Below, piece by piece: positions 1-27,715 of a DNA stretch of 32,007 nt. How positions within the stretch are numbered: position 1 is the stretch's first letter; each line of letters starts with the position of its first letter. Origin of the DNA: a virus; the UHGV virus genome UHGV-1480848, one strand, 5' to 3'. The notes below the pieces were generated by a model, which saw only the letters and a list, made by a program, of their open reading frames with translations, ran no database searches and was not told where the DNA came from. Position numbers and translations under genes: made by a program.

Positions 1-18
1 ATATAAAGAGGTAAATCA

Positions 19-177
19 TTTGATACTGCTGAAAAATCCGGGAGGAAAGTGGATCAAACGGGATTTGATGGGATAAAACAAACAGTTATGACGTAAAACA
101 GTGTTATGCGCACAACATGTGATTTGATACTACTGTCGCAAAGAAAGCTAAAAACGAAAAAATATTTGATACTACTG
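19..177 (+). repeat. Three direct copies of 13-mer TTTGATACT(G/A)CTG; putative transposase end-binding sites (L1/L2/L3-like)
   Basis: Copies seen at 19-31, 123-135 and 165-177, each followed by an A-rich tract; bases 32-70 resemble the Mu left-end sequence CCGGGAGG...GATGGGAT as I recall it. Confidence 0.6.
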
Positions 178-234
178 ATTTCTGCGATTTTAACGTTTTA
201 AACAGGTTAAAAAACCAGCCGCGGGCTATTGGAA

Positions 235-819
235 TTAGCCCGCCTTCGATTCTAAACTACTTGAGAGTTTATCGCTTTCAATTTCTGCCAAAATCTCTCT
301 AACTCTTTCATCCGATAAATGATCTAAAAGTAGAGCTGCTGCACGTTTTCGTCCTTCAAGTTGGATTAGTTCTTGATTCTCTGGTTCAAGTAACCGTGAC
401 AAGTACTTAGCTCCATTTAGCGCGAGGATTTTTGATAATCGCTCTGCCTCTGATGCTTCTAAAGCACTTAGTATAGCAAGAAGGCGCTGTAGCGTTATAT
501 CTAGGGGCAATTGGACGTTTTCATCTATTTTAGGTGATATTGGTTCTATATCCTCCTTGCCAAAAACAAGCCAATCAATGCTCACCCCTTCTGCAAAAGC
601 AATCTGACCAGCTACTTGTAGAGATGGTGTCGCATCTTTCTCAAAGTAGTTGTTAAGTGTTGAGAACGGTAGCCCCCACGCCTTCGCCACGGCAGTCTTG
701 GAGCGCCCGCGCATTAACATGGCTAGGCGCTCTTTAATGCTTTCTTTTTGAAACACAGGAAAAGAAAAATCACTTTCTTTTTCAGTGCTTCTTTCTTTTC
801 TGTTAACTATATGATTCAT
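235..819 (-). CDS. Prophage repressor (c-like), HTH DNA-binding protein
   Basis: Only leftward gene, divergent from ner as in Mu; HTH-like segment SKTAVAKAWGLPFSTLNNY. Start taken at internal ATG (MNHIV...) because the ORF-track N-terminus is an implausible hydrophobic extension; alternative start 870. Confidence 0.7.
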   Translation of the reverse strand: MNHIVNRKERSTEKESDFSFPVFQKESIKERLAMLMRGRSKTAVAKAWGLPFSTLNNYFEKDATPSLQVAGQIAFAEGVSIDWLVFGKEDIEPISPKIDENVQLPLDITLQRLLAILSALEASEAERLSKILALNGAKYLSRLLEPENQELIQLEGRKRAAALLLDHLSDERVREILAEIESDKLSSSLESKAG

Positions 820-959
820 AAAGAAATATCCTTTTGTAGATAAAAACCACCAAAGAAAGAGATAAAACACCTTTACTTTTCTTTTGTAGTGATCAAATAT
901 TTATATGTAGAGATTATCCGGCGGTGTTATCCGCGCAGATAACTTTTAAGGATAAACGA
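820..959. promoter_or_regulatory. Divergent operator/promoter region between repressor and ner
   Basis: AT-rich 140 bp with direct repeat CTTTTGTAG at 831-839 and 881-889, IHF-like core gATCAAatatTTA at 890-902, and imperfect palindrome GTTATC-N6-GATAAC at 926-943. Confidence 0.55.
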
Positions 960-1196
960 ATGATGTCTATAAATGAAGTTGTTAAACAGGACTGGCACCC
1001 CGCGCATGTTGTCGCGGCGGTGCATGTAAAAGGTTTTACTTTACGCTCTCTGTCCATTGAAGCCGGTTTAAACCAGGATTCTTTAAAGAATGCCCTGTAC
1101 CGCAAATGCCCAAAATATGAGCGCATTATTGCTGATGCTATTGGTGTTGCTCCGGAGGAGATCTGGCCCAGCCGTTACGCTCGTAAGGTGGTATAA
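960..1196 (+). CDS. ner: Ner-like DNA-binding protein (negative regulator of early transcription)
   Basis: Translation carries Ner/Nlp-family motifs (DWH..V.A, IIA.A.G..PE.IWPSRY); ATG at 960 preceded by AAGGA; ORF-track start 924 is GTG without a good RBS. Confidence 0.85.
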   Translation: MMSINEVVKQDWHPAHVVAAVHVKGFTLRSLSIEAGLNQDSLKNALYRKCPKYERIIADAIGVAPEEIWPSRYARKVV

Positions 1197-1198
1197 AA

Positions 1199-3286
1199 AT
1201 GTTTGTATCAGTTAATGAGCTTGTAGGGCTACCAGGTATGCCGGGAACTGCGCAAGGGGTGCGGTATTCCATAAGGAAACTGGCCTCATCTGAGCATTTC
1301 AGGCGCAAACGTGCGGGTTCAAAAACCATTGAATACAGCATCGACTGCCTCCCTCCGATTACACAACGGGCGTTACGTGAGCGACATGTAGCTCAACTGA
1401 TGGCAAGCGCCCCGCAGGAGATAACTACCCAGCCTCCTGTAAAGCGTGAACGCAAACAAAATGTTGTACAGCCTGTTGAGGCATATCGCGGTTCGCCACA
1501 ATTGGTAGAAGAGCGTCTGAATGCGCTTACGGAAAATCAACGTAAAGTTGCAGAAGCGCGCATTGCTCTTGTCTGTGAAGTTCTACGAATTAGCCAGGAG
1601 CCGGGATTCAGTTGTGCCAGCGCTATACGTTTTATTGTGTCGCGGTTAGCACAGGGTAACCTGGAAGAACGCCTGGAATCTTTGGTCATTACTGCTAATG
1701 CCCGTAAAGGAAAAGAGCGAACTCTGAGCGCAATTACGCTCAAACGTTGGATAGCTGCGTTTAACAAAGCACAGAATGCCGCAGAACGACTGCTGTTACT
1801 GGCACCAGGAAAGCGCGACGAAATAAAACCGGAAGAAATTAGCTGGCTGCCTGAATTTCTGGCGCAGTATCGTCAGGCTAACGGCAGGCCTATGTCTGAA
1901 GCCTATGAGGATTTTGTCGCTGATTGGCAGCGTCGCCATGCGGACGAACCATACATGCTGGAGGTGATGCCTTCCTATGATGTTGTCCGGTATGCCATGA
2001 AAAAACTGCCGGAAGTGGTGAAACAAAAAGGGCGCGTTACCGGCAGTGAATACCGTCAGCTTGAAGGATTCACCCGCCGCGACTGGACAGCTATGCCGGT
2101 GAATTATGTCTGGATTGGTGACGGTCACGGTATGAAGCTGAAATGTGCGCATCCGGTTCACGGGCGTCCATTTTCACCGGAAGTTACGTTTGTGATCGAC
2201 GGTGGAACCCGGTTTGTGGTTGGCTGGAGTCTTGATCTTGCGGAGAACGTGTTCGCTGTTGCCGGGGCGATACAACACGGCATTCGCAATCATGGAAAAC
2301 CATTCCTGTATTACTCGGATAATGGTTCCGGTGAAACGGCAGATATGCTGGATAAAGAGATCGTCGGGATTCTGCCCCGTCTGGGGATTAACCACCCCAC
2401 CGGTATTGCGGGAAATCCGCAGGGACGCGGCATTATTGAACGCCTGAACCGAACATTACCGATGCGTATAGCCAGGAGGTATCGCACCTATTTCGGCAAG
2501 GGTGCTGACCGGGAATCGTTGCGAGTACTTAATCGTGATCTGCGTTCAGCGTTTAATGCCCTGCAACAGGACAAGCCACTGAGCGCCCGTCAGAAAGCCG
2601 CAATGCGCGAGCTGCCGTCCTGGTCAGAACTGATTGAGGCTATCCGTGAGGGGGTGGAGTGGTACAACAACCGCCCACATTCTGAATTGCCGATGAAACC
2701 AAACGGAAAGCATTACAGCCCGGCAGAGTTCAGAAAAAAACGCTTAGCGGAAGAAGACACTGAAATTGAGTGGCTGAGTGATCTTGAGCTGCGCGACATG
2801 TTCCGCCCGATGGTGGAGCGTCCGGTAAGACGCTGCGAAATCCAGTGGCTGAACAATATTTACTACGCGCCAGAGCTGCGTGATGAACATGGTCGCAAAG
2901 TACTTATCAGCTATGACATTCACGATGCCGAGCGAATTACGGTACGCCGTAAGGACGGTAGCTTTATCTGTGAGGCGATATGGAACGGCAATAAACGCGC
3001 AGCCTTTCCTGTCACGGCTGAATATCACAAACAACAGCAGCGTATTAAAGGCATGCGCAAGCGTGCTGAGGAAAAAATTCGTGATGCAGAGGATGAAGGT
3101 ATTCAGATTCTGGAACACAAACAGGCTGAACCCTGGCTGGATAATGTTTATCGCCCGGTTGGTAATACGGTAACCATCCGGCAACAGGATTATGAGGAAG
3201 ATTACGACGAAGATTATGAACGCGATTTCAGGCTGGGTTTGCAAAAACTTGCAGCCATACAGGAACAGGATGATCCGCTGGCCTGA
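1199..3286 (+). CDS. A: DDE transposase, MuA-like
   Basis: 695 aa directly after ner; Mu-transposase-like core (VWIGDGHGMKLK, NHGKPFLYYSDNGS) and acidic C-terminal tail. Confidence 0.93.
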   Translation: MFVSVNELVGLPGMPGTAQGVRYSIRKLASSEHFRRKRAGSKTIEYSIDCLPPITQRALRERHVAQLMASAPQEITTQPPVKRERKQNVVQPVEAYRGSPQLVEERLNALTENQRKVAEARIALVCEVLRISQEPGFSCASAIRFIVSRLAQGNLEERLESLVITANARKGKERTLSAITLKRWIAAFNKAQNAAERLLLLAPGKRDEIKPEEISWLPEFLAQYRQANGRPMSEAYEDFVADWQRRHADEPYMLEVMPSYDVVRYAMKKLPEVVKQKGRVTGSEYRQLEGFTRRDWTAMPVNYVWIGDGHGMKLKCAHPVHGRPFSPEVTFVIDGGTRFVVGWSLDLAENVFAVAGAIQHGIRNHGKPFLYYSDNGSGETADMLDKEIVGILPRLGINHPTGIAGNPQGRGIIERLNRTLPMRIARRYRTYFGKGADRESLRVLNRDLRSAFNALQQDKPLSARQKAAMRELPSWSELIEAIREGVEWYNNRPHSELPMKPNGKHYSPAEFRKKRLAEEDTEIEWLSDLELRDMFRPMVERPVRRCEIQWLNNIYYAPELRDEHGRKVLISYDIHDAERITVRRKDGSFICEAIWNGNKRAAFPVTAEYHKQQQRIKGMRKRAEEKIRDAEDEGIQILEHKQAEPWLDNVYRPVGNTVTIRQQDYEEDYDEDYERDFRLGLQKLAAIQEQDDPLA

Positions 3287-3358
3287 ATAAAAAACAGTCC
3301 GCGGGAACGGACTGTTAAGTAAAGGAAACAAAGCTGATTTGAATAAACGGAGAATAAT

Positions 3359-4291
3359 ATGACCGATATTAATGATGTTTTCAACACAATTAATGCGCTG
3401 ATTACTGACGGTGTAAAAACACAAAGCGCTATCGCCAAAGAAGCTGGCGTGTCGGAGGCCACTCTTTCTGAACTTCGCAAAGGCCGTTACAAAGGCGATA
3501 CCGAAGGGATGCACAACAAATTACTGATGTGGCATCAGGGCTGGCAGAAAAGTCTGGAGTTGCCCGGCACCCCACAACTTGTGGAAACACAGACCCTGCG
3601 TGATTTGCGTGAACTTTTTCAGACAGTGCGTGTTATGGGGTGTATCAGCGTTCTGGTGGGTGTGCCGGGGGTAGGAAAAACCGTTGCGGCCCGTGAATAC
3701 AGTAACCGCGTATCTAATACCTGGATGGTAACCCTTTCCCCTGCACACTCAACGGTGACGGAATGTCTGCTGGAACTGGCAGACGCGCTGGGAATTGATA
3801 ACCCGCAAAGGAATAAAGGCGCGCTGACCCGTGCCATTCGCAAAAAACTGAACGGTACACGCGGTCTGGTGATTGTGGATGAAGCTGACCACCTGAGCAT
3901 TGACGGGCTGGAACAATTACGTGCCATTCAGGATGCCACCGGAGTCGGGATGGTATTGATTGGTAACCCCAGTCAGTTAGCCAAAGCCACACATCGGGGA
4001 ACGGATGACCTTGCACGTTTGTTCAGTCGTTTCGCCAGGACAAAGCAACTACGTAAAGCCAAAAAGGCTGACGTGGTGGCAATTGCGAAAGCCTGGGGCA
4101 TTGAGGGCGAAGATGAATTATCACTCATGCAGAGCATCGCGGAAAAGCCAGGCGCATTGCGTGTATTAACTCACACGCTGAATCAGGCGTGGCTGGCAGC
4201 CAGCGGGAAAGGCGTTCCTCTGTCCAAAGGCTACATAAAAGCGGCTTTTAAAGAGGTTTACAGCAACCCGAAATTACTGAACTGGTGGTAA
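3359..4291 (+). CDS. B: Transposition ATPase / target DNA activator, MuB-like (AAA+)
   Basis: 310 aa; N-terminal HTH; Walker A GVPGVGKT; Walker B LVIVDEADHL; follows A. Confidence 0.93.
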   Translation: MTDINDVFNTINALITDGVKTQSAIAKEAGVSEATLSELRKGRYKGDTEGMHNKLLMWHQGWQKSLELPGTPQLVETQTLRDLRELFQTVRVMGCISVLVGVPGVGKTVAAREYSNRVSNTWMVTLSPAHSTVTECLLELADALGIDNPQRNKGALTRAIRKKLNGTRGLVIVDEADHLSIDGLEQLRAIQDATGVGMVLIGNPSQLAKATHRGTDDLARLFSRFARTKQLRKAKKADVVAIAKAWGIEGEDELSLMQSIAEKPGALRVLTHTLNQAWLAASGKGVPLSKGYIKAAFKEVYSNPKLLNWW

Positions 4292-4305
4292 GGGGATAAT
4301 AAATA

Positions 4306-7652: not shown

Positions 7653-7953
7653 TGGCGTATTTACAAAATCCGAGGAACTGACAGCGTTGTTGACGGCGGC
7701 TGGTTTTCCTGAAGATGTGATCGGTAACTTTGTGGCGGCGGTATATGCCCCGTCTTATAACCGTGCAATTGATGAGGTCATGGCGTACCGACTCGGCATT
7801 GTTGCTGAGTCACTGAGTCCTCACTGGATTATTGAAAATCTCCGCGCTATTGCTGATGGCAACGATAAATCAGCAGCCGTTGCTGCACTGGATGTGTTAC
7901 GGCAAATGAGTCTGAAATTTTATCCTGAATTTATTCTGAGGGCCGCAAAATGA
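7645..7953 (+). CDS. Hypothetical early protein
   Basis: ATG 7645 overlaps the upstream stop by 8 nt; ends in ATGA overlap with the next gene. Confidence 0.45.
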   Translation: MNNGVFTKSEELTALLTAAGFPEDVIGNFVAAVYAPSYNRAIDEVMAYRLGIVAESLSPHWIIENLRAIADGNDKSAAVAALDVLRQMSLKFYPEFILRAAK

Positions 7954-10033: not shown

Positions 10034-10456
10034 ATGCAGCATGATTTATTTGAACACGATCCGGCAATTCGCCAGTTAATCGGACATATTGATAACATCC
10101 CGGCCCCGGAACTGGAATCACGCTGGCCCCGTTCGGTGGTTGATCTGATTGATGTTCTGGAAAACGAACTGAAACGCCAGAACGTCAGCAATCCCCGTGA
10201 GCTTGCCCGTAAACAGGCCGTTGCCCTGTCCTGTTTTCTGGGCGGACGGCAGTTTTACATCCCCTGCGGCGATACGATCCTGACCGCGTTACGCGACGAT
10301 TTGCTTTACTGCCAGTTCAATGGTCGTAACATGGAAGAACTGCGTCGCCAGTATCGCCTGTCCCAGCCGCAGATCTACCAGATTATTGCCCGCCAGAGAA
10401 AGCTGCATACACGACGTCATCAGCCTGATCTGTTCTCACCTGAAAGCCAGAAATAA
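10034..10456 (+). CDS. C: Late gene transcription activator C (Mor/C family)
   Basis: 140 aa; paralog of Mor by shared motifs; precedes the lysis and morphogenesis genes. Confidence 0.9.
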   Translation: MQHDLFEHDPAIRQLIGHIDNIPAPELESRWPRSVVDLIDVLENELKRQNVSNPRELARKQAVALSCFLGGRQFYIPCGDTILTALRDDLLYCQFNGRNMEELRRQYRLSQPQIYQIIARQRKLHTRRHQPDLFSPESQK

Positions 10457-10477
10457 CCGGCATCCTGCCGGTTATTT
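10451..10477 (+). terminator. 12-bp perfect hairpin overlapping the C stop codon; likely middle-transcript terminator
   Basis: AAATAACCGGCA-TCC-TGCCGGTTATTT; U-rich 3' arm; overlaps the TAA of C. Confidence 0.6.
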
Positions 10478-10480
10478 CCT

Positions 10481-10547
10481 GTCACCATAATCCCGCACCT
10501 GCCATCTGATTTTTTAGACTGCCATCAGAGCATTTTTTCAGGGAAGC
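10481..10547 (+). promoter_or_regulatory. Candidate C-dependent late promoter upstream of lys
   Basis: Intergenic region between the C terminator and lys; carries CCCGCACCT at 10493-10501 (also found upstream of I) and direct repeat TGCCATC at 10500-10506 and 10521-10527. Confidence 0.45.
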
Positions 10548-11066
10548 ATGATGGCGGGGATACCAAAAAAACTGAAAGCCGCACTGCTGGCGGCAACGAT
10601 TGCCGGTGGCAGTGTGGGTGGTTATCAGGAAATGACCCGTCAGTCTCTGATCCATCTGGAAAATATCGCTTATATGCCTTACCGCGATATTGCCGGTGTG
10701 CTTACGGTCTGTGTGGGACATACCGGGCCGGATATCGAAATGCGCCGTTACAGCCATGCGGAGTGTATGGCTCTTCTCGACAGTGATTTAAAACCGGTTT
10801 ATGCGGCAATCGATCGTCTTGTCAGGGTGCCGCTGACGCCATATCAGAAAACGGCGCTGGCAACGTTTATTTTCAACACCGGTGTTACCGCATTCAGTAA
10901 ATCAACGCTGCTGAAAAAACTCAATGCCGGTGATTACGCCGGAGCGCGTGACCAGATGGCCCGCTGGGTGTTTGCCGCAGGCCATAAATGGAAAGGACTG
11001 ATGAACCGTCGCGAAGTGGAAATGGCTATCTGGAATATCAGGGGGGCGGATGACCTTCGCCAGTAA
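10548..11066 (+). CDS. lys: SAR endolysin (T4-lysozyme-like muramidase with N-terminal signal-anchor-release domain)
   Basis: 172 aa; N-terminus KKLKAALLAATIAGGSVGGY is Gly/Ala-rich and weakly hydrophobic, typical of SAR domains; closely resembles Mu Lys as remembered. Confidence 0.85.
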   Translation: MMAGIPKKLKAALLAATIAGGSVGGYQEMTRQSLIHLENIAYMPYRDIAGVLTVCVGHTGPDIEMRRYSHAECMALLDSDLKPVYAAIDRLVRVPLTPYQKTALATFIFNTGVTAFSKSTLLKKLNAGDYAGARDQMARWVFAAGHKWKGLMNRREVEMAIWNIRGADDLRQ

Positions 11067-11436
11067 AAGTTTACTGCTGGCAGCCGTGTTTGCCGCCGTT
11101 CTGTCCGGGGTGTTGTGGCACAGGCTGGACAGCACCCGCCACGATAACCAGACGCTGCGCCGTGAATTACAGACGGAGCAACAGGCCCGCCACACTGCTG
11201 AATGGTTGTTACACGGTCAGGAACAGACGATGCAGGTATTTTCCGCTATCCGTGCCGCAAATCGTGCCGCACGGCTGGCAGATGAGACAGAACATCATGA
11301 TGCAAAAGAAAAAATTACAACCGCCATTACCGGTGACAATTGCAGCACTCGTCCTGTGCCTGCCGTTGCTGCTGACAGGTTGCGGGAACTCGAAAAACGC
11401 ACCCGTGCCATCGGTGGTGATCCTGCCCGAAACTGA
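11050..11436 (+). CDS. Inner-membrane spanin component (Rz-like i-spanin)
   Basis: N-terminal TM LLLAAVFAAVLSGVLW followed by a charged helical region; overlaps the end of lys. Confidence 0.7.
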   Translation: MTFASKSLLLAAVFAAVLSGVLWHRLDSTRHDNQTLRRELQTEQQARHTAEWLLHGQEQTMQVFSAIRAANRAARLADETEHHDAKEKITTAITGDNCSTRPVPAVAADRLRELEKRTRAIGGDPARN

Positions 11437-11638
11437 TGCAGAACTGACGGAAGCCACGCCCGTTCCGCCCATGCCACAGCCCCTGACGTGGGGTGCATCC
11501 CTTCTCTGGAATGCTGACCTGTTGATGGCGCTCGGGCAGTGCAACCGCGACAAGGCATCAGTCCGGGAACAGGAGACCCGAAGGAAAGAAATTTATGAAC
11601 GAAGACCAGAACCGGGCGGTGGCGCTGCTGCTCGCTGA
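11297..11638 (+). CDS. Outer-membrane lipoprotein spanin component (Rz1-like o-spanin)
   Basis: Starts in a different frame inside the i-spanin gene; lipoprotein signal with lipobox LLTGC; Pro-rich mature region; start could be 11282 or 11300. Confidence 0.65.
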   Translation: MMQKKKLQPPLPVTIAALVLCLPLLLTGCGNSKNAPVPSVVILPETDAELTEATPVPPMPQPLTWGASLLWNADLLMALGQCNRDKASVREQETRRKEIYERRPEPGGGAAAR

Positions 11639-11789
11639 ACTCTGGCAGGGGGATACCCGTGATATTCCCCGCCCGGCGGCGTATGACCCGCCTGTATTGT
11701 GTGCCGGTTGCGGTCGTGAGCTGCGGCCTGATGTGCTGAGACAGCAGCCGATGGCGAACTACTGCCACTGGTGCCGTGGAGCAGAATAA
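11595..11789 (+). CDS. Small zinc-finger protein (TraR/DksA-like C4 motif)
   Basis: 64 aa; CAGC...x17...CHWC; AAGGAAAG RBS; ends in TAATG overlap with the next gene. Confidence 0.5.
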   Translation: MNEDQNRAVALLLAELWQGDTRDIPRPAAYDPPVLCAGCGRELRPDVLRQQPMANYCHWCRGAE

Positions 11790-12088
11790 TGGATTTGATT
11801 TCAGTTTTAGCGTTATGGCCTTACCTGTTGCCTGTTGTGGCCGGTGGGGCCGTCTGGGCGATGCGTCGTAGTTTTGCCAGCACCGAGCGTGTGGAGCGTC
11901 TTGAAAACCGGATGACCGAAATGGAAACCCGCTACGCCAGCATCCCTGGCACAGAAGATGTACACGAAATGCGCCTGCGAATTGCAGAGCTGTCCGGCGA
12001 TATCCGGGTGCTGTCCCAGCGGGTGCAGTCATTTTCCCATCAACTGGAGCTGCTGCTTGAAAACGCAGTAAACCGGAGTAATTCATGA
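11789..12088 (+). CDS. Membrane-anchored coiled-coil protein, Mu gp25-like (releasin candidate)
   Basis: N-terminal TM ISVLALWPYLLPVVAGGAVWA then coiled-coil; position matches Mu gp25. ORF-track start 11771 is GTG; ATG 11789 preferred. Confidence 0.6.
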   Translation: MDLISVLALWPYLLPVVAGGAVWAMRRSFASTERVERLENRMTEMETRYASIPGTEDVHEMRLRIAELSGDIRVLSQRVQSFSHQLELLLENAVNRSNS

Positions 12089-12375
12089 TTAACGATATTC
12101 TGACCGAAGACCGTCGTCTGGTCATCCTGCGTTCCCTGATGGACTGCAATAACGAAGCCAACGAATCCATCCTTCAGGACTGTCTGGATGCATACGGACA
12201 CAACGTTTCCCGTGATGTGGTTCGCGGCCAGATTGACTGGCTGGCAGAGCAGCAACTGGTCACCGTGGAAAACCTGCGCGGCTTTTATGTCGTAACGCTG
12301 ACCTCCCGTGGTCAGGATGTGGCGGAAGGCCGTGCCCGCATTGCCGGTGTCAAGCGTCCGCGTCCCCGTGCATGA
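12085..12375 (+). CDS. Hypothetical protein (positional analog of Mu gp26)
   Basis: 96-aa ORF with ATGA overlap to the previous gene. Confidence 0.5.
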   Translation: MINDILTEDRRLVILRSLMDCNNEANESILQDCLDAYGHNVSRDVVRGQIDWLAEQQLVTVENLRGFYVVTLTSRGQDVAEGRARIAGVKRPRPRA

Positions 12376-12962
12376 CAGGAGGCGTGATGGACAGGAAAAC
12401 ACGGGGACGGGCTTCAAAAGTGGATTTACTGCCGGAAAATGTACGTAAAACGCTGCATGAAATGCTGCGTGATAAGGCGATCCCACAGGCCCGCATTCTT
12501 GAAGAAATTAACGCACTGATTGAAGACGCTGGCCTGCCGGATGAGATGAAACTCTCCCGTTCAGGTCTGAACCGTTACGCGACGAACGTCGAGCAGGTAG
12601 GCCATAACCTGCGGCAGATGCGTGAAATGACGTCAGCACTGACCGCAGAACTTGGCGACAAGCCAATGGGTGAAACCACAAAGCTGATTCTGGAAATGGC
12701 CCGCAGCCAGCTTTTTAAGGCCATGATGCGGCAAATCGAAAACCCGGAATCTGACGTGGATATTGACCTGCTGAAAAATGCCATGCTGGCGGCACAGCGT
12801 CTGGAATCCACGGCAATGTCCAGCCACCGGCGCGAGAAAGAAATCCGCCAGGCATTCGCAGAAGAAGCGGCAAACGCCGTCAGTGAAGAACTGCGCGGGC
12901 AGGATGGCATCAGCGAAGAGCTGGAGCAGCGTATCCGTGATGTGCTGCTGGGTAAGGCATGA
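12372..12962 (+). CDS. Mu gp27-like protein (putative terminase small subunit / DNA-recognition component)
   Basis: Immediately upstream of terminase large subunit; alternative start ATG 12387 after AGGAGG. Confidence 0.65.
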   Translation: MTGGVMDRKTRGRASKVDLLPENVRKTLHEMLRDKAIPQARILEEINALIEDAGLPDEMKLSRSGLNRYATNVEQVGHNLRQMREMTSALTAELGDKPMGETTKLILEMARSQLFKAMMRQIENPESDVDIDLLKNAMLAAQRLESTAMSSHRREKEIRQAFAEEAANAVSEELRGQDGISEELEQRIRDVLLGKA

Positions 12963-12969
12963 GAGGGTT

Positions 12970-14625
12970 ATGAACACCAGAGAAAACAATCTTAAAGCCC
13001 TTCATGCCCCCCGAAAAATCGACCTGCGTAAGGAAGCCGAACTGCTGGGCGTGAATATCGTTACCGATATCGGGGAAGCACAGCCTCGCAATGAACCGGT
13101 TTTTCTGGGTTATCAGCGCCGCTGGTTTGAGGATGAAAGCCAGATTTGTATTGCTGAAAAATCCCGTCGTACCGGTCTGACATGGGCCGAAGCGGGCCGC
13201 AATGTCATGACGGCAGCAAAGCCGCGTCGCCGTGGCGGTCGCAACGTTTTTTATGTGGGTTCCCGTCAGGAAATGGCGCTGGAATACATTGCCGCCTGTG
13301 CCCTGTTTGCCCGCGCCTTTAACCAACTGGCAAAGGCTGACGTATGGGAGCAGACCTTCTGGGACAGCGACAAAAAAGAAGAAATCCTCACTTATATGAT
13401 CCGTTTCCCTAACAGCGGATTTAAGGTGCAGGCGCTGTCAAGCCGTCCGTCTAACCTGCGTGGTTTGCAGGGAGACGTGGTGATTGATGAGGCGGCATTT
13501 CATGAAGCCCTGGACGAACTCCTGAAAGCGGCTTTTGCTCTCACCATGTGGGGTGCCCGCGTGCGGATCATATCGACACATAACGGCGTCGATAACCTGT
13601 TTAACCAGTACATTCAGGATGCGCGCGAGGGGCGCAAGGATTACAGCGTTCACCGCATCACGCTGGATGATGCCATCGCTGACGGGTTGTACCGACGTAT
13701 CTGTTACGTCACGAATCAGCCGTGGTCGCCGGAAGCGGAAAAAGCCTGGCGTGATGGCCTGTACCGGAATGCGCCGAATAAAGAGAGTGCCGACGAGGAA
13801 TACGGCTGCATTCCCAAAAAATCCGGGGGCGCTTATCTGTCACGCGTGCTGATTGAAGCCGCCATGACGCCAGTGCGGGATATCCCGATTCTGCGTTTTG
13901 AAGCCCCGGACGATTTTGAATCGCTGACACCACAAATGCGCCACGGCATCGTTCAGGACTGGTGTGAACAGGAGCTGCTCCCGTTGCTCGATGCGCTGTC
14001 GCCGCTCAATAAACACGTACTGGGCGAAGACTTTGCACGCCGTGGCGACCTGACGGTGTTTGTGCCGCTTGCCATCACTCCTGACTTACGCAAACGCGAA
14101 TGTTTCCGCGTGGAGCTGCGTAATGTGACCTATGACCAGCAGCGACAAATCCTTTTATTCATTCTGTCCCGTTTGCCCCGTTTTACCGGCGCTGCATTTG
14201 ATGCCACCGGTAACGGCGGTTATCTGGCAGAAGCCGCCCGTCTGATTTATGGCCCGGAGATGATCGACTGCATCAGTCTGACCGCCGCCTGGTATCAGGA
14301 GTGGATGCCGAAACTGAAAGGCGAGTTTGAAGCGCAGAACATCACGATTGCCCGGCATCAGACCACACTCGATGACCTGCTTCATATCAAGGTGGACAAA
14401 GGTATTCCGCAGATTGATAAGGGGCGCACAAAAGATGAAAGCGGTAAAGGCCGACGACATGGTGACTTTGCCGTGGCGCTCTGTATGGCTGTCAGGGCGT
14501 CTTATATGAATGGTTTTGTTATCGACGAGGACAGCATACAGGCGCTGCCACCACGCCACCGTGGTGATGATGTTGATAACGATGATTTTGATGATTATCA
14601 CCAGTTTGAACGAGGGGGCTGGTAA
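12970..14625 (+). CDS. Terminase large subunit
   Basis: 551 aa from ATG 12970 (GAGAGGG RBS); ATPase-like VFYVGSRQ and nuclease-like C-terminal half. ORF-track start 12778 overlaps the upstream gene. Confidence 0.85.
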   Translation: MNTRENNLKALHAPRKIDLRKEAELLGVNIVTDIGEAQPRNEPVFLGYQRRWFEDESQICIAEKSRRTGLTWAEAGRNVMTAAKPRRRGGRNVFYVGSRQEMALEYIAACALFARAFNQLAKADVWEQTFWDSDKKEEILTYMIRFPNSGFKVQALSSRPSNLRGLQGDVVIDEAAFHEALDELLKAAFALTMWGARVRIISTHNGVDNLFNQYIQDAREGRKDYSVHRITLDDAIADGLYRRICYVTNQPWSPEAEKAWRDGLYRNAPNKESADEEYGCIPKKSGGAYLSRVLIEAAMTPVRDIPILRFEAPDDFESLTPQMRHGIVQDWCEQELLPLLDALSPLNKHVLGEDFARRGDLTVFVPLAITPDLRKRECFRVELRNVTYDQQRQILLFILSRLPRFTGAAFDATGNGGYLAEAARLIYGPEMIDCISLTAAWYQEWMPKLKGEFEAQNITIARHQTTLDDLLHIKVDKGIPQIDKGRTKDESGKGRRHGDFAVALCMAVRASYMNGFVIDEDSIQALPPRHRGDDVDNDDFDDYHQFERGGW

Positions 14626-16163
14626 TGGGCCGTATTCTGGATATTTCCGGGCAGCCGTTTGATTTTGACGATGAAATGCAGACCCGCAGCGATGAGCTGG
14701 CAATGGTCATGAAGCGCACGCAGGAGCATCCTTCCAGTGGTGTGACGCCGAACCGGGCCGCGCAGATGCTGCGTGATGCCGAACGCGGTGATCTGACCGC
14801 ACAGGCTGACCTGGCCTTTGATATGGAAGAAAAGGACACCCACCTTTTTTCCGAACTGAGCAAGCGCCGCCTTGCCATTCAGGCGCTGGAATGGCGCATC
14901 GCTCCGGCACGTGATGCCAGCGCACAGGAGAAAAAAGACGCCGACATGCTGAATGAATATCTGCATGATGCGGCGTGGTTTGAAGATGCCCTGTTTGATG
15001 CCGGTGATGCCATTCTCAAGGGTTATTCCATGCAGGAGATTGAATGGGGCTGGCTGGGCAAAATGCGCGTGCCGGTGGCGCTGCATCATCGCGATCCGGC
15101 GCTGTTCTGCGCGAACCCCGATAATCTGAACGAATTACGTCTGCGTGATACGTCTTATCACGGGCTGGAGCTGCAACCGTTCGGCTGGTTTATGCACCGG
15201 GCCAAATCCCGCACCGGGTATGTTGGCACCAATGGCCTTGTGCGCACGCTTATCTGGCCTTTTATTTTTAAAAACTATTCCGTGCGTGATTTTGCAGAGT
15301 TTCTGGAAATTTACGGACTCCCCATGCGCGTCGGTAAATATCCGACCGGCTCCACAAACCGTGAGAAAGCCACGCTGATGCAGGCCGTGATGGATATCGG
15401 GCGACGTGCCGGTGGCATTATTCCGATGGGGATGACGCTGGATTTTCAGAGCGCCGCAGATGGTCAGTCAGACCCCTTTATGGCGATGATTGGCTGGGCA
15501 GAAAAAGCGATTTCAAAAGCCATTCTTGGCGGCACCCTGACCACAGAGGCTGGCGATAAAGGTGCACGGTCGCTGGGTGAAGTGCATGATGAGGTTCGCC
15601 GGGAAATCCGTAACGCGGATGTGGGCCAGCTTGCCCGCAGTATTAACCGTGACCTGATTTATCCCCTGCTGGCACTGAACAGTGACAGCACCATTGATAT
15701 TAACCGCCTGCCGGGCATTGTATTTGATACCAGTGAAGCGGGTGATATTACGGCACTGTCTGACGCCATTCCGAAACTGGCGGCGGGAATGCGTATTCCG
15801 GTCTCCTGGATACAGGAAAAACTTCATATTCCACAGCCGGTCGGTGATGAAGCCGTGTTTACTGCTCAACCGGTTGTCCCGGATAACGGTCCGCAGAAAG
15901 AGGCCGCATTATCCGCTGAAGATATCCCGCAGGAGGATGATATCGACCGGATGGGCGTCTCACCGGAAGACTGGCAGCGTTCGGTTGATCCCCTGCTGAA
16001 ACCCGTCATTTTTTCTGTGCTGAAAGATGGCCCGGAAGCCGCCATGAACAAAGCCGCTTCATTATATCCGCAGATGGATGATGCAGAACTTATCGACATG
16101 CTGACCCGTGCCATTTTTGTTGCCGATATATGGGGGCGTCTGGATGCCGCAGCAGACCATTGA
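14625..16163 (+). CDS. Portal protein (Mu gp29 family)
   Basis: 512 aa; TAATG overlap with terminase; sits between terminase and the F-like protein. Confidence 0.85.
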   Translation: MGRILDISGQPFDFDDEMQTRSDELAMVMKRTQEHPSSGVTPNRAAQMLRDAERGDLTAQADLAFDMEEKDTHLFSELSKRRLAIQALEWRIAPARDASAQEKKDADMLNEYLHDAAWFEDALFDAGDAILKGYSMQEIEWGWLGKMRVPVALHHRDPALFCANPDNLNELRLRDTSYHGLELQPFGWFMHRAKSRTGYVGTNGLVRTLIWPFIFKNYSVRDFAEFLEIYGLPMRVGKYPTGSTNREKATLMQAVMDIGRRAGGIIPMGMTLDFQSAADGQSDPFMAMIGWAEKAISKAILGGTLTTEAGDKGARSLGEVHDEVRREIRNADVGQLARSINRDLIYPLLALNSDSTIDINRLPGIVFDTSEAGDITALSDAIPKLAAGMRIPVSWIQEKLHIPQPVGDEAVFTAQPVVPDNGPQKEAALSAEDIPQEDDIDRMGVSPEDWQRSVDPLLKPVIFSVLKDGPEAAMNKAASLYPQMDDAELIDMLTRAIFVADIWGRLDAAADH

Positions 16164-17463
16164 TCTGGCGTATGCCGCACGCCTCCCGCCAAAGGAGGCT
16201 GTCGCGTATTTCCGCGCCAAAGGCTACAACATCACCTGGAACTGGTACGAACAACTGGCAGACGCGCACGCCCGCGCCTTTACCGTTGCCAAAGCCACCC
16301 GGATGGATGTCCTGACCACAATCCGTGAGGAAGTGGAGCGGGCTGTCAGTGAAGGCATCACCCGTGAGGAATTTACCCGCACACTGGCCCCCCGGCTGCA
16401 AAAACTCGGATGGTGGGGAAAACAAATCATCGTGGATGCAGAGGGAAACGCAAAGGTAATCGAGCTGGGCAGTCCGCGTCGTCTGGCAACCATTTATAAC
16501 GTCAATACCCGTACGGCGTATGGGGCAGGACGTTATGCGCAGATGATGAATACCGCAGATTTGTATCCGTACTGGCAGTATGTTGCCGTTATGGATGGCA
16601 GAACACGCCCGGAACATGCGCGGCTGCACAATATGGTTTTCAGGTATGACGACATTTTCTGGCAGACGCATTACCCGCCCAATGGCTGGAACTGCCGCTG
16701 TCGCGTCCGGGCGGTGTCTGCGGCCCGCATGAAAGAACTGGGGCTACAGGTCAGTTATGGTGCGTCATTCATGAACACCCGCGAAGTGGATGCCGGTACG
16801 GATGAAAGCACCGGAGAGATTTTCCGCACATCGTCAACCACATTTGACAACGGTCGGGTAAAAATGACGCCGGATGTAGGCTGGTCATATAACCCTGGTT
16901 CGGCGGCATTTGGTACGGATCAGGCACTGATTCGAAAACTGGTGGAAATTCACGACGCGCAGCTGCGTGAGCAGGTTGTGCAGACACTGAATAACAGCCG
17001 GGAGCGTCAGCTTGCTTTTTCCCTCTGGCTTAAACGCCTGGCAGGATCACGTCAGGCCGGTCATGAAATCCGGGCGCTGGGTTTTATGACGGGATCCGTG
17101 GCTGAAGCCGTATATCAGCGCACCGGGAATATGCCAGCCCGTTTGCTTGTAATGAACGGGAAAAGTCTGGCGACCACTGCTGATGCCGCCCTGAAACCGG
17201 AAGATTTACAGCGTCTGCCGTCGCTGATGGCAAAACCACAGGCGGTATTGTGGGACAGGGAGAACCACCAGTTGCTGTATGTTGTGGCAACCCGCGACGG
17301 CACTGCAAAAGTTGTGGTCAGAACATCGCAGGCTGTCAGCAAACAGAATGACCGGGCGGATGTGCTGGTCAGTATCAGCCGCGTATCTGCACTGTCGCTT
17401 GAAGCCGCGATTGCTGACGGGATGATTGACATACTGGAGGGGCATGTGGAGGTGAATAAGTGA
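16144..17463 (+). CDS. F: Head morphogenesis protein, Mu F-like
   Basis: MuF-family motifs (RPEHARLHNMVF, YPPNGWNCRCRV); ATG 16144 overlaps the portal end by 20 nt; alternative GTG 16108. Confidence 0.8.
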   Translation: MPQQTIDLAYAARLPPKEAVAYFRAKGYNITWNWYEQLADAHARAFTVAKATRMDVLTTIREEVERAVSEGITREEFTRTLAPRLQKLGWWGKQIIVDAEGNAKVIELGSPRRLATIYNVNTRTAYGAGRYAQMMNTADLYPYWQYVAVMDGRTRPEHARLHNMVFRYDDIFWQTHYPPNGWNCRCRVRAVSAARMKELGLQVSYGASFMNTREVDAGTDESTGEIFRTSSTTFDNGRVKMTPDVGWSYNPGSAAFGTDQALIRKLVEIHDAQLREQVVQTLNNSRERQLAFSLWLKRLAGSRQAGHEIRALGFMTGSVAEAVYQRTGNMPARLLVMNGKSLATTADAALKPEDLQRLPSLMAKPQAVLWDRENHQLLYVVATRDGTAKVVVRTSQAVSKQNDRADVLVSISRVSALSLEAAIADGMIDILEGHVEVNK

Positions 17464-17471
17464 GTCTTGAT

Positions 17472-17930
17472 ATGAACGTTGCCGTGGATGTGCGACGTAT
17501 TCAGCTTGCACTGGATGAACTGGGAACCGTTACACGTGACCGCGCCATTCCCCGTGTGATGGCTGCGGCGCTGCTGTCATCCACGGAACAGGCATTTGAA
17601 CGGCAGGCAGACCCGGATACAGGGAAAGGCTGGGAAGCGTGGAGCGATTCGTGGCTGGCATGGCGTCAGGATCATGGTTTTGTTCCGGGCAGTATCCTTA
17701 CCCTGCATGGCGATCTGGCACGCAGCATTACCACCGATTATGGACAGGATTATGCCCTGATTGGTTCGCCAAAAATTTATGCTGCCATTCATCAGTGGGG
17801 CGGTACACCCGATATGGCACCCCGCCCGGCAGGCGTTCCTGCGCGTCCTTATATGGGGCTGGATAAGACCGGGGAACAGGAAATTTTTGATGCCATCAGA
17901 AAACGCGTCAGCACCGCTCTGAGGCAATAA
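17472..17930 (+). CDS. G: Virion morphogenesis protein, Mu G-like
   Basis: Follows F as in Mu; alternative GTG start 17460 overlapping the F stop. Confidence 0.7.
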   Translation: MNVAVDVRRIQLALDELGTVTRDRAIPRVMAAALLSSTEQAFERQADPDTGKGWEAWSDSWLAWRQDHGFVPGSILTLHGDLARSITTDYGQDYALIGSPKIYAAIHQWGGTPDMAPRPAGVPARPYMGLDKTGEQEIFDAIRKRVSTALRQ

Positions 17931-18126
17931 ACAGAATCAGGCATAAAATCAGCCGCACAGATTTTTTAAAACGCGCCACGGGATTTTTAAACCGGTATTT
18001 AACGGTGTATGAATCCCGTTTTATCTTCCTTCCACTTTCTTTCTCCAGTACTCAAATAGCATAACCCCAGATTTTCCCGCACCTCCCGCAAACTGACTGC
18101 TCATAAACCATGATGAGCAGCAGGAC
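17931..18126. promoter_or_regulatory. G-I intergenic region: candidate late promoter and candidate strong gyrase site
   Basis: 196 bp non-coding gap in an otherwise packed operon; 8-bp inverted repeat ACGGGATT (17978-17985) / AATCCCGT (18012-18019); CCCGCACCT at 18076-18084; GCTCAT/ATGAGC hairpin at 18099-18117 next to the I start. Confidence 0.5.
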
Positions 18127-19212
18127 ATGAAAAAACACGCGATTGGCATTGCCGCACTGAGTGCGCTGTCCATTGACGATGACGGCTGGTGCCAGCTATT
18201 GCCTGCCGGTCATTTCAGTGCCCGTGATGGTCGTCCGTTTGATGTGACAGGCGGTCAGGGGTGGTTCATCGACGGTGAGATTGCCGGGCGTCTGGTTGAA
18301 GGCGTTCGCGCGCTCAACCAGGACGTGCTGATTGATTACGAGCATAACCAGCTACGTAAGGACAAAGGATTACCCCCGGAACAACTCGTCGCGGCTGGCT
18401 GGTTTAACGCCGATGAAATGCAGTGGCGTGAAGGTGAAGGATTATTTATCCACCCACGCTGGACGGCGGCGGCCCAGCAGCGCATCGATGACGGCGAATT
18501 TGGTTATCTCTCTGCGGTTTTTCCGTATGACACCGACACCGGTGCAGTGCTGCAAATCCGCCTTGCTGCGCTGACCAATGACCCCGGTGCCACCGGCATG
18601 AAAAAGCTGACCGCACTGGCGGCAGACCTTCCCGACATCCTTCAACAGGAGAACAAACCCATGAATGAAACGCTGCGCAAGCTGCTTGCGCGTCTTGGGG
18701 TGACGGTCCCCGAAAATGCAGACATCACCGATGAACAGGCCAGCGCGGCCCTGAGTGCGCTTGATGCGCTCGAAACAGATGCCGGAAAAGTGGCGTCGTT
18801 ATCCGCCGAACTGGAAAAGGCACAGAAAGCCGCCGTTGACCTGACGAAATACGTCCCGGTGGAAAGCTACAACGCCCTGCGTGATGAACTGGCACAGGCG
18901 ACTGCACAAAGCGCCACAGCCAGCCTGAGCGCCGTTCTGGACAAGGCGGAACAGGAAGGCCGCATTTTCAAAAGCGAACGCACTTACTTGGAACAGCTTG
19001 GCGGTCAGATTGGCGTGGCGGCACTGTCGGCACAGCTTGAGAAAAAACAGCCCATCGCTGCGTTATCTGCCATGCAGACCACCACAGCGAAAATCCCGTC
19101 GCAGGAAAAACCGGCGGTGGCGGTGCTGTCTGCTGATGAACAGGCAGCAGTGAAGGCGCTCGGCATTACTGAGGCTGAGTATCTGAAAATGAAACAGGAA
19201 CAAGAAAAATGA
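18127..19212 (+). CDS. I: Head maturation protease / scaffold, Mu I-like
   Basis: 361 aa; N-terminal protease-like domain then Ala/Gln-rich helical scaffold-like C-terminus; lies before the major capsid gene. Confidence 0.85.
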   Translation: MKKHAIGIAALSALSIDDDGWCQLLPAGHFSARDGRPFDVTGGQGWFIDGEIAGRLVEGVRALNQDVLIDYEHNQLRKDKGLPPEQLVAAGWFNADEMQWREGEGLFIHPRWTAAAQQRIDDGEFGYLSAVFPYDTDTGAVLQIRLAALTNDPGATGMKKLTALAADLPDILQQENKPMNETLRKLLARLGVTVPENADITDEQASAALSALDALETDAGKVASLSAELEKAQKAAVDLTKYVPVESYNALRDELAQATAQSATASLSAVLDKAEQEGRIFKSERTYLEQLGGQIGVAALSAQLEKKQPIAALSAMQTTTAKIPSQEKPAVAVLSADEQAAVKALGITEAEYLKMKQEQEK

Positions 19213-26227: not shown

Positions 26228-27715
26228 ATGTTTGAAGATGCTTTAAATGCCGTTAATGCTGTCCGGGATAAAATCAGCGGTGGTAAGAAAACAACCGGCA
26301 AAGGCACGTTTCGTAACGTGCCGTTTCTCGTCATCGAGGAGCAAAAACAGGCTGGCGGACGTCGCCTGGTTAAACGCGAGTACCCGTTACGTGATACCGG
26401 CGGCGTCAATGACCTGGGGAAAAAGCTTCGCTCCCGTACATTCAGCGCCTGCATTCTGAACAGCAACGCAGAAACAGCCAGAGATGAAGCGGGTGCGCTG
26501 ATGGATGCTCTTGATGCTCCGGGCAGCGGTGAGCTGGTGCACCCTGATTTCGGCACTGTGGACGTCATGGTGGATTCATGGGAATGCCGCACTAAAGCGG
26601 ATGAACTGAATTATTACGCGTTCACCGTTACCGTTTATCCGTCGTTGCAGGATACTGCCCCGGACGCAGAGACAGACACCAGTGCAGCCGTACCGGCACA
26701 GGCCGTTGCTGTAACCGGTTCTCTGGGAGATACGCTGTCCTCTGTCTGGCAGACCGTAAAAGATGGCACTGCGGCGGCAACCGCCGTGATGGAAGCTGTA
26801 ACCGGTGTCATCGATGATATCAGTGATGCGGTGGACAATCTGGGGGTTACGCAGACTGTCAGTGGTCTGATGGGCTCGCTTTCCGCGATGAAAGGCTCTG
26901 TGACCAGCCTGATTAATCAACCTGCCATGCTGGCCTCCTCGCTGATGGGGGCGCTGTCCGGCGTTTCATCGTTATGCGATACCCGGACAGCATTTTCCAC
27001 ATGGAACCGTCTGGCGCAGCGATTCGAACGTCGCCATGCCGCCACCGCAGGCAGACAGGGGGCAATCACAACCTCGTACAACAGTCCGGTTGCAGAAAAA
27101 AATATTGCCACACTGAACTACGTCATGCTGGCAGCGGCGCAGACATACCGGGCAGAAGCTGCCAGCCAGGCACTGACTGCGGCACTGGATTTCAGTCGCC
27201 GGATGGATAATGCCGCCCGTGCACCTGTACTGGATGCCCCGTCCACCACAACCGGCACAGCCAGCGGGGCCAGCAGCACATCTGCTACCGTCACACAGGG
27301 ACAGTTACAGTTAACTGCCATAACCCCGGACGGCGGCTTTTCACAGGTATCCTTTTCAGACAGTGGTACAGCCACGCCCCCGGTATTTGAAAGTGTGTCC
27401 GATATCGGAAAAACAGCCGCCATGCTGGGGGCTGCACTGGATACCGTCATTCTGACGGCATCTGAGCAGGGCTTTTCGACAGACAGCGTTCAGCTTACGC
27501 AACTGCGTCTGCTGGTTGTTGCCGACCTGGAAAAACGCGGGCTGCAACTGGCGGGCAGTGAAACGCACCGCCTGCCGGAGACGATGCCTGCAATGGTGGC
27601 CCTGTACCGTTACACAGGAAACAGCCGGAACTGGCAACGGCTGGCCCGCAGGAACGGTATCAGCAACCCGTTGTTTGTTCCCGGTGGTGTCAGTATTGAG
27701 GTGATTAATGAGTAA
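26228..27715 (+). CDS. DNA circulation protein family (Mu N-like) tail/baseplate protein
   Basis: 495 aa following the tape-measure gene; Ser/Thr/Ala-rich linker. Confidence 0.75.

Follow-up and report, generated by a model that had tools for sequence, protein, structure and literature searches.

The window, that is the whole 32,007-nt stretch of DNA that was analysed, is a Mu-type phage genome with about 98% identity to Mu from 8.2 kb onward. Around Plys and PI the phage is a mosaic, and over its first 4.3 kb it shows no DNA-level relationship to Mu. Identity to Mu, D108 and PhiR68_1 ranges from 98.5 to 99.9% across the two regions considered here, and a megablast search recovered the PI region in 41 of 5,426 complete E. 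coli genomes with 95–99% identity. As proposed in the first-pass annotation, the window encodes a homolog of the activator C: its product is identical to Mu C at 138 of 140 positions, with an unchanged helix-turn-helix (HTH) region, and matches PF08765. The late promoters and a cognate activator of the Mor/C family are thus carried by the same element, as expected of the Mu late-promoter class. The features of the locus are collected in Table 1; in Mu, lys is annotated from the equivalent of its second ATG, which is at 10551 here.

Table 1. Late promoters, repeat copies and genes discussed in the text (positions in the window; promoter numbering relative to the transcription start)
Feature	Position	Strand	Description and basis
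Gene C	10034..10456	+	140-aa activator of late transcription; matches Pfam PF08765, the Mor family (E=9e-34); annotated as late activator in Mu and D108
Plys	10474..10540	+	Late promoter; = Mu 10403-10469, AF083977 'Late promoter activated by C, PMID 2522923'
Plys -52..-34	10475..10493	+	Required for C-dependent activity, holds the C site; from the start at 10527 and PMC2582627
9-mer copy 1, CCCGCACCT	10492..10500	+	Plys -35..-27 (10-mer, -36..-27)
Plys -10 hexamer	10515..10520	+	TAGACT, 24 nt after ATAA
lys	10548..11066	+	SAR endolysin gene, first in the lys transcript; Pfam Phage_lysozyme (E=1e-37)
PI	18048..18114	+	Late promoter; = Mu 17977-18043, AF083977 'late promoter, PMID 2522923'
PI -52..-34	18049..18067	+	Predicted C site, by analogy; aligned in register to Plys, PP and Pmom
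9-mer copy 2, CCCGCACCT	18076..18084	+	PI -25..-17, promoter spacer (10-mer, -26..-17)
PI -10 hexamer	18089..18094	+	CAAACT, 24 nt after ATAA
Gene I	18127..19212	+	Head maturation protease/scaffold; Pfam Mu-like_Pro PF10123 (E=2e-97); Mu annotation
PP	27307..27373	+	Late promoter within gene N; 67/67 = Mu 27287-27353, annotated 'late promoter, PMID 2522923'

The two intergenic regions, initially taken for the C-dependent promoters Plys and PI, do fall inside the corresponding features of AF083977, from which they depart at two (Plys, -22 C>T and +5 A>C; 65/67 identical) and one (PI, +4 C>T; 66/67 identical) of 67 positions. Apart from these three point differences, they share with their Mu counterparts the loci, the -10 hexamers, the ATAA placed 24 nt upstream and the flanking genes (C-lys and G-I). 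Since both copies of the repeat lie inside the mapped Plys and PI and C is almost identical to Mu C, the promoters and their activator are correctly identified as those of a Mu-type phage, and their transcription is predicted from this likeness to be C-dependent. The Mu late promoters were reportedly mapped by Margolin, Rao and Howe in 1989 with S1 mapping, and mutagenesis of a Mu late promoter is said to have been performed by Chiang and Howe in 1993.

The C site of Mu has been described as an imperfect dyad of 16 bp that has its centre at -43.5 and the consensus TTAT-N5-6-ATAA (PMC2582627, PMC12867686). For Plys, mutations define a required block from -52 to -34 plus the -10 hexamer, the DNase I footprint extends from about -55 to -30, and the bases immediately adjacent to the dyad on its downstream side are reported to be critical (PMC2582627). 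Each of the four late promoters, namely Plys, PI, PP and Pmom, needs C in vitro, and at Plys, PI and PP the activator acts at isomerisation, not recruitment, with promoter architecture thought to matter (PMC4461284). C was long modelled as a dimer, but a 2025 cryo-EM preprint shows it as a tetramer. The -10 hexamers and the transcription starts, both as published, served to anchor the register; the starts were drawn from the oligonucleotide design of PMC4461284, and the required block and footprint from the summary in PMC2582627. Three checks support this numbering: the TTAT-N6-ATAA site of Pmom is centred at -43.5, the ACCACA -35 element of Pmom is found with a 19-bp spacer as in PMC2582627, and the lys, I and P oligonucleotides of PMC4461284 leave 20 nt downstream of the start. 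The transcription start of Plys is so placed at the A at 10527; that of PI is near the T at 18101, with an uncertainty of 1 nt due to one extra base in the printed I oligonucleotide.

The 9-mer CCCGCACCT occurs exactly twice in the window, on the + strand in both cases. The claim of an identical 9-mer ahead of lys and I is therefore borne out, and the coordinates of the second copy were right, while the first lies at 10492-10500 instead of 10493-10501. The gap to the first downstream ATG amounts to 47 nt for lys (10548), as previously noted, and to 42 nt, not 43, for I (18127). The exact shared block is a 10-mer, TCCCGCACCT (10491-10500 and 18075-18084), and it can be extended to a block matching at 12 of 13 positions (TCCCGCACCTgCC versus TCCCGCACCTcCC), with unrelated flanks. 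PI also carries an adjoining partial repeat, CCCGCAcct CCCGCAaac. A search of the whole window returned the 9-mer at the two late promoters only and one extra copy of the 8-mer CCCGCACC, at 15208 within the portal gene, which was discarded as a further late-promoter site since it is without ATAA or -10 context. In the whole Mu genome, CCCGCACCT has likewise just two copies. Both promoters and their 10-bp match are already known: the match is drawn in a figure published in 2015, where it is given no function, and the lys and I oligonucleotides of that work contain TCCCGCACCT (PMC4461284). The block marked there is the same as the one for which the first-pass annotation, in contrast, proposed a role as a C element.

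By chance, 0.27 copies of CCCGCACCT are expected in the window, and at least two copies were obtained in 3 of 100 dinucleotide shuffles. A common substring of at least 10 nt between both intergenic regions (91 and 196 nt) appeared in 1.4% of mononucleotide shuffles, and one between the two 24-nt promoter spacers in 0.07% of shuffles (~7e-4), both being post hoc estimates. The suggestion that the match is unlikely by chance thus holds above composition alone (p ~0.014 to 0.0007), but the excess is post hoc and not overwhelming. The match is statistically unusual, yet no function is evident. Given these statistics, the match may have a non-random origin, for instance sequence exchange or a shared constraint.

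The two copies do not occupy equivalent positions when measured from the -10 hexamers and the transcription starts. The 9-mer spans -35 to -27 in Plys and -25 to -17 in PI, and is thus 10 bp out of register, or about one helical turn. The matching positions first claimed for the copies are roughly correct relative to the ATGs, but they differ by those 10 bp once the promoters themselves are the reference; both copies do lie upstream of the published transcription starts. In Plys, the proximal half-site ATAA of the C site is at 10487-10490 and the 9-mer starts right after it, so that its leading CCC (-35 to -33) belongs to the activator-proximal element and is among the critical bases adjacent to the dyad. 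This CCC falls within the conserved late-promoter element; the other bases of the Plys copy are unconserved. Six of its nine bases are under the C footprint, and two of nine are in the required -52 to -34 block. The likeness to the Mu C site ends there: the dyad is distinct from the 9-mer, and neither the required block nor the expected footprint should reach any base of the PI copy. That copy lies 11 nt downstream of the PI ATAA and, by analogy with Plys and Pmom, should be outside the C contact zone. Besides, PI has its own in-register element, CATAACCCC, at 18060-18068. Aligning PI to Plys on the 10-mer was also attempted and abandoned: ATTT then replaces ATAA and GCTCAT (GCTCAC in Mu) stands at -10, which leaves no promoter in that register. 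With an offset of almost exactly one helical turn, the block would point to the same side of the helix in both promoters.

Alignment with the Plys, PI, PP and Pmom promoters of Mu reveals a different common element. The four annotated 67-bp features are in register, with ATAA ending at position 17, followed after 24 nt by TAGACT, CAAACT, TATCCT or TAAGAT. The shared signature consists of RKAA at -40 to -37, CCC at -35 to -33 and exactly 24 nt from RKAA to a NANNNT -10 hexamer; TAGACT and CAAACT both display the A at position 2 and the T at position 6. PP has CATAACCCC at 27319-27327, its -10 hexamer TATCCT at 27348-27353 and its transcription start at the A at 27360, and the P oligonucleotide shows the same geometry for this promoter (PMC4461284). 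Neither PP of the window nor Pmom of Mu contains the 9-mer, and PP lacks CCCGCACC as well. In the window, CATAAYCCC is found at Plys, PI and PP only, each time with the 24-nt spacing, and ATAA[CT]C[CA]C-N20-NANNNT matches at 10487, 18061 and 27320 only, for 0.15 matches expected. A sigma-70 consensus scan of the Plys and PI regions found no promoter.

Conservation among Mu-like phages follows the same line. The CCC at -35 to -33 is present in 15, 14 and 17 of 17 non-redundant Mu-like late promoters at its three positions, while -32 to -27 and -25 to -17 carry about 0–0.5 bit, with the exception of -29 (about 1.0 bit). This profile was anchored by a regular expression forcing -38/-37 and -11/-7, which makes those four columns circular. 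At the spacing of the PI -10 hexamer, relatives have CACACT, CAAAAT, GAAAAT or AAAAAT. The 9-mer is absent from all diverged Mu-like relatives, which all keep the RKAA-N-CCC, 24-nt and -10 architecture; likewise, Aeromonas, Tolumonas and Oceanimonas prophages have this architecture and none has the 9-mer. Plys equivalents of diverged phages do conserve the 5' bases CCC(G) of the 9-mer. Relatives also have long in-register blocks common to their own Plys and PI equivalents, such as CAGATACCGGAATCCCCGAT, and these illustrate the appearance of a true shared activator site. Most close relatives of Mu keep the 9-mer at both sites, but this retention says little either way because their genomes are about 98–99% identical overall. 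One phage (L043) has two substitutions in the PI 10-mer, although its C is 100% identical and its Plys canonical, and in another (L032) the PI copy is replaced with the flanking promoter elements kept.

Taken together, these data make it very probable that the two copies lie inside the known Plys and PI and that their 10-bp identity is not a shared C-recognition element, since the PI copy is one helical turn downstream, in the spacer, and PI possesses its own CATAACCCC. The first proposal, that CCCGCACCT itself is the C-recognition or late-promoter element at equivalent positions of Plys and PI, did have some appeal: its only copies in the window are at these two late promoters and precede their transcription starts, the Plys copy overlaps both the -35 region and the margin of the C footprint, and the CCC(G) is conserved in diverged Plys equivalents. 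It nevertheless became extremely improbable, as the copies are out of register by 10 bp, PP and Pmom are equally C-dependent and lack it, the required block of Plys takes in only two of its nine bases while the published site is the dyad at -43.5, no diverged relative conserves it, and two substitutions occur in the PI 10-mer of a phage whose C is 100% identical. The element shared in register is RKAA/CCC/-10.

Could the 10-mer instead be a functional module apart from C recognition, through a contact with RNA polymerase or a host factor or through DNA structure? The unusual statistics of the match, an offset close to one helical turn, the retention of the block in most close relatives and the action of C at isomerisation at Plys, PI and PP, where architecture is thought to matter (PMC4461284), would fit such a role. 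We consider it very unlikely, given that PP is mechanistically like Plys and PI yet lacks the block, that nothing beyond CCC is conserved at either position in diverged phages, that the PI copy is substituted in one relative and replaced in another with its flanking elements kept, and that the Plys mutagenesis summary confines the required region to -52 to -34 plus the -10 (PMC2582627). The same low credence goes to its more specific form, in which the block would be used at -35 in Plys and, on the same helical face but one turn downstream, in the PI spacer, and could tune these two morphogenetic/lysis promoters differently from PP and Pmom. That TCCCGCACCT, shifted by exactly one helical turn between Plys and PI, is a contact element for RNA polymerase or the C tetramer, or a DNA-structure element facing the same side of the helix, and tunes open-complex formation at both promoters is very unlikely as well. 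Two further ideas were dropped. For a covarying, conserved hairpin in the leader of I, RNAalifold gave only a weak four-pair closing stem with one compensatory pair. The strong gyrase site (Mu 17879/17880), which lies upstream of the PI copy by about 125 bp, was judged too distant to account for the block.

Most likely, the 10-bp identity is a coincidence specific to this lineage or survives from a local exchange of sequence between two C-rich promoter regions, and the PI copy probably has no function. A more definite history, in which illegitimate recombination or gene conversion, for example, transferred or duplicated sequence between the promoters within the Mu lineage and left a match that is now neutral, is possible but doubtful. 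The 12 identities within one discrete stretch of 13 nt bordered by unrelated sequence, the confinement of this block to the immediate Mu lineage and the partial repeat adjoining it in PI all point in that direction; however, neither a donor/recipient polarity nor intermediate forms were found among the sampled relatives, and so short a block may arise by chance in C-rich sequence. Such a history is compatible with the preferred explanation rather than opposed to it.

Activation in this phage would proceed as in Mu, whose late promoters are established to have a usable -10 hexamer and no -35 consensus. C would bind the imperfect dyad centred at -43.5, of which the proximal ATAA ends at -37 and is followed by CCC at -35 to -33, and sigma-70 RNA polymerase would form a productive open complex once C is bound. 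The Plys 9-mer begins just past the half-site and would have about six bases beneath bound C.

To conclude, the repeat is of little importance beyond annotation, as it amounts to a rediscovery of Plys and PI of Mu, for which mapping dates from 1989, mutagenesis from 1993 and mechanistic work from 2015. When Mu-like prophages are annotated, the sequence diagnostic of late promoters is RKAA-N-CCC with exactly 24 nt from RKAA to a NANNNT -10 hexamer, and not CCCGCACCT. This composite signature selects exactly three late promoters in the window and holds as far as Aeromonas prophages.

The intergenic regions upstream of lys and I are the known late promoters Plys and PI, and the repeat that they share, although genuine, was wrongly assigned as the recognition element of the activator C. 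From 8.25 kb to its end the window is 97.8% identical to Mu (AF083977), and identity to Mu, D108, SfMu and PhiR68_1 reaches 98.5-99.9% in the C-lys and G-I regions. Both copies of the 9-mer CCCGCACCT fall inside the late-promoter features of the curated Mu record (annotation reference PMID 2522923), with the endolysin gene downstream of Plys and a Mu-like I protease gene downstream of PI. The first-pass annotation had therefore named both promoters correctly, as it had the C homolog, whose product is identical to Mu C at 138 of 140 positions and matches Pfam Mor (PF08765). No sigma-70 consensus promoter was found in the Plys or PI region, as expected for activator-dependent promoters without a -35 element. 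The 10-bp match had itself been recorded, with no function assigned, in the Fig 1B legend of Swapna et al., so that the repeat, like the promoters, is already known.

Late-promoter features in the window and in Mu
Feature	Window	Mu	Difference from Mu	Hexamer	TSS in window
Plys	10474-10540	10403-10469	2/67 positions	TAGACT	10527
PI	18048-18114	17977-18043	1/67 positions	CAAACT	about 18101
PP				TATCCT	27360
Pmom				TAAGAT	
9-mer in Plys (+ strand)	10492-10500				
9-mer in PI (+ strand)	18076-18084				
C ORF	10034-10456				
Hairpin 3' of C	10454-10477	10383-10406			

Outside this Mu-like part, window 1-4293 (repressor, ner, transposase A and B) and 7655-7946 have no blastn match to Mu, and the Yersinia phages vB_YpM_5 and vB_YpM_6 are 98% identical over window 2-3175. 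Since the left 4.3 kb is non-Mu at the DNA level and resembles Yersinia phages, the window is a mosaic Mu-like phage in which middle and late regions of Mu type are joined to a heterologous immunity/transposition module. Gene C is followed by the hairpin CCGGCATCCTGCCGG, the counterpart of a terminator annotated in Mu, although a simple scan for terminators missed it. This hairpin continues directly into the distal TTAT (10472-10475) of the region that holds the Plys C site, so that the late promoter's upstream edge overlaps with the place where the middle transcript terminates.

The 9-mer occurs exactly twice in the window, at the two late promoters, against 0.27 copies expected by chance; the first copy lies 1 nt from the position initially reported (10493-10501). 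Two copies were reached in 3 of 100 dinucleotide shuffles. The exact identity extends to the 10-mer TCCCGCACCT, and 12 of 13 positions agree on further extension, while the 8-mer CCCGCACC has one more copy inside the portal gene (15208), without promoter context. A shared substring of at least 10 nt appeared in 1.4% of shuffles of the two intergenic regions and in 0.07% for the two 24-nt promoter spacers, both tests being post hoc. The match is thus somewhat above composition expectation, which bears out, within that limit, the view that it is unlikely by chance. A partial direct repeat (CCCGCAcct CCCGCAaac, 18076-18094) comes after the 9-mer in PI; its second unit extends into the hexamer, and the repeat may be the trace of local slippage or duplication.

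The matching positions claimed for the two copies hold only approximately when counted from the ATGs, since the leaders are not equally long, and do not hold when counted from the transcription starts. The four late-promoter features annotated in Mu line up: in each, ATAA ends at feature position 17 and the hexamer follows after 24 nt. Three independent checks were made on the numbering. With the hexamer at -12 to -7, the Pmom site TTATGCCCCAATAA has its centre at -43.5, in agreement with the 16-bp imperfect dyad described as the C site (Jiang & Howe, PMC2582627); the proposed Pmom -35 element ACCACA keeps the 19-bp spacer stated in that paper; and the oligonucleotides of PMC4461284 share one geometry (53 nt, hexamer, 6 nt, TSS, 20 nt), the printed I oligonucleotide having one extra base that leaves the PI start uncertain by 1 nt. 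With the starts so placed, the 9-mer spans -35 to -27 in Plys and -25 to -17 in PI, a shift of 10 bp, and the copies are out of register when their flanks are aligned with Mu Plys, PI, PP and Pmom.

The C site tells the same against the 9-mer as activator element. C binds a dyad that lies upstream of the -35 region and overlaps it, and PMC2582627 places protection at Plys and Pmom at about -55 to -30, with extensive point mutagenesis of Plys identifying -52 to -34 plus the -10 as required and the bases directly downstream of the dyad as likewise critical. This required block (window 10475-10493) covers only the first 2 bases of the Plys 9-mer, of which the footprint takes in 6. The PI copy lies 11 nt downstream of the PI ATAA and, by analogy, would be outside the C footprint. 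In vitro, PP and Pmom depend on C just as much (PMC4461284), and the 9-mer is absent from PP in the window and from Pmom in Mu.

Plys and PI equivalents were gathered from IMG/VR contigs through C and I protein searches, with additional PI equivalents taken from the genomes of bacteria. In all lineages where a promoter was recognisable, as far as Aeromonas, Tolumonas and Oceanimonas prophages, RKAA is followed by N-CCC, and a NANNNT hexamer comes exactly 24 nt after RKAA. Across 17 non-redundant promoters, CCC at -35 to -33 is kept in 15, 14 and 17 and T at -49 in 16, columns -38/-37 and -11/-7 being forced by the anchoring pattern and hence circular, while -32 to -27 and -25 to -17 carry about 0-0.5 bit, except -29 (about 1.0 bit). 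In the window, ATAA[CT]C[CA]C-N20-NANNNT occurs only at 10487, 18061 and 27320 (0.15 expected), a count that is circular as a significance test and shows specificity; CATAAYCCC likewise occurs only at these promoter sites. In one phage, CAGATACCGGAATCCCCGAT stands in register in both the Plys and the PI equivalent and exemplifies a true shared activator site.

At Plys, the 9-mer provides the conserved CCC adjoining the half-site and sits where the missing -35 hexamer would be; at PI, the 9-mer is spacer. C was long modelled as a dimer, whereas a 2025 cryo-EM preprint describes a centrosymmetric tetramer on Pmom contacting alpha-CTD, sigma-70 region 4 and the beta flap; MuC makes use of the beta sliding clamp as well. 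At Plys, PI and PP, C is dispensable for polymerase binding and needed for a productive open complex to form (PMC4461284). What remains odd is the 10-mer itself, statistically unusual and shifted by one helical turn between the two promoters; sequence exchange could have left it as a relic. That it is a functional spacer or -35 module is less likely; nothing found here favours a function, and the comparative data argue against one. The 9-mer was found at neither site in diverged relatives. In contig IMGVR_UViG_2541047851_000005, C is 100% identical and Plys canonical, yet the PI 10-mer has two substitutions within an otherwise 99% identical region. In a related locus (L032) with a 99% identical I protein, the spacer is wholly different, although ATAACCCC, CACACT and the 24-nt spacing are kept. 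Both natural variants speak against a constraint on the PI copy.

The leaders vary as well. The I leader of Mu-like phages (window 18095-18129) starts with GRCY and ends with RGYC just before the ATG; an 8-bp stem can form between CTGCTCAT and ATGAGCAG in the window, one pair longer than in Mu owing to a C>T change at +4, and RNAalifold returned only a weak closing stem of 4 pairs, with one compensatory pair. In contrast to the leader of about 26-33 nt in Mu and its enteric relatives, seven PI equivalents of Edwardsiella, Tolumonas, Aeromonas and Oceanimonas prophages (L102, L114, L123, L126, L134, L144, L156) have the I ATG only 6 nt past the predicted -10 hexamer (e.g. CACTAT GGCGGC ATG), so that their late transcript would begin at the A of the start codon or beside it and is predicted to be leaderless. 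In this group the -10 lies between the arms of an inverted repeat, CATGCCGCC...GGCGGCATG. Just after the endolysin start codon of one contig (L026/L086, IMGVR_UViG_2576861418_000006), about 8 tandem copies of the 9-bp AAAAGCCCC enlarge the N-terminal (signal-arrest-release) region of the lys homologue compared with the sister contigs L025 and L027.

To conclude, prophages ranging from Enterobacterales to Aeromonadales (L097-L156, L085-L094) keep (ACC)RKAA-N-CCC, 24 nt and NANNNT upstream of their homologues of I and lys, and this arrangement could be a practical signature for annotating the late promoters of Mu-like prophages.
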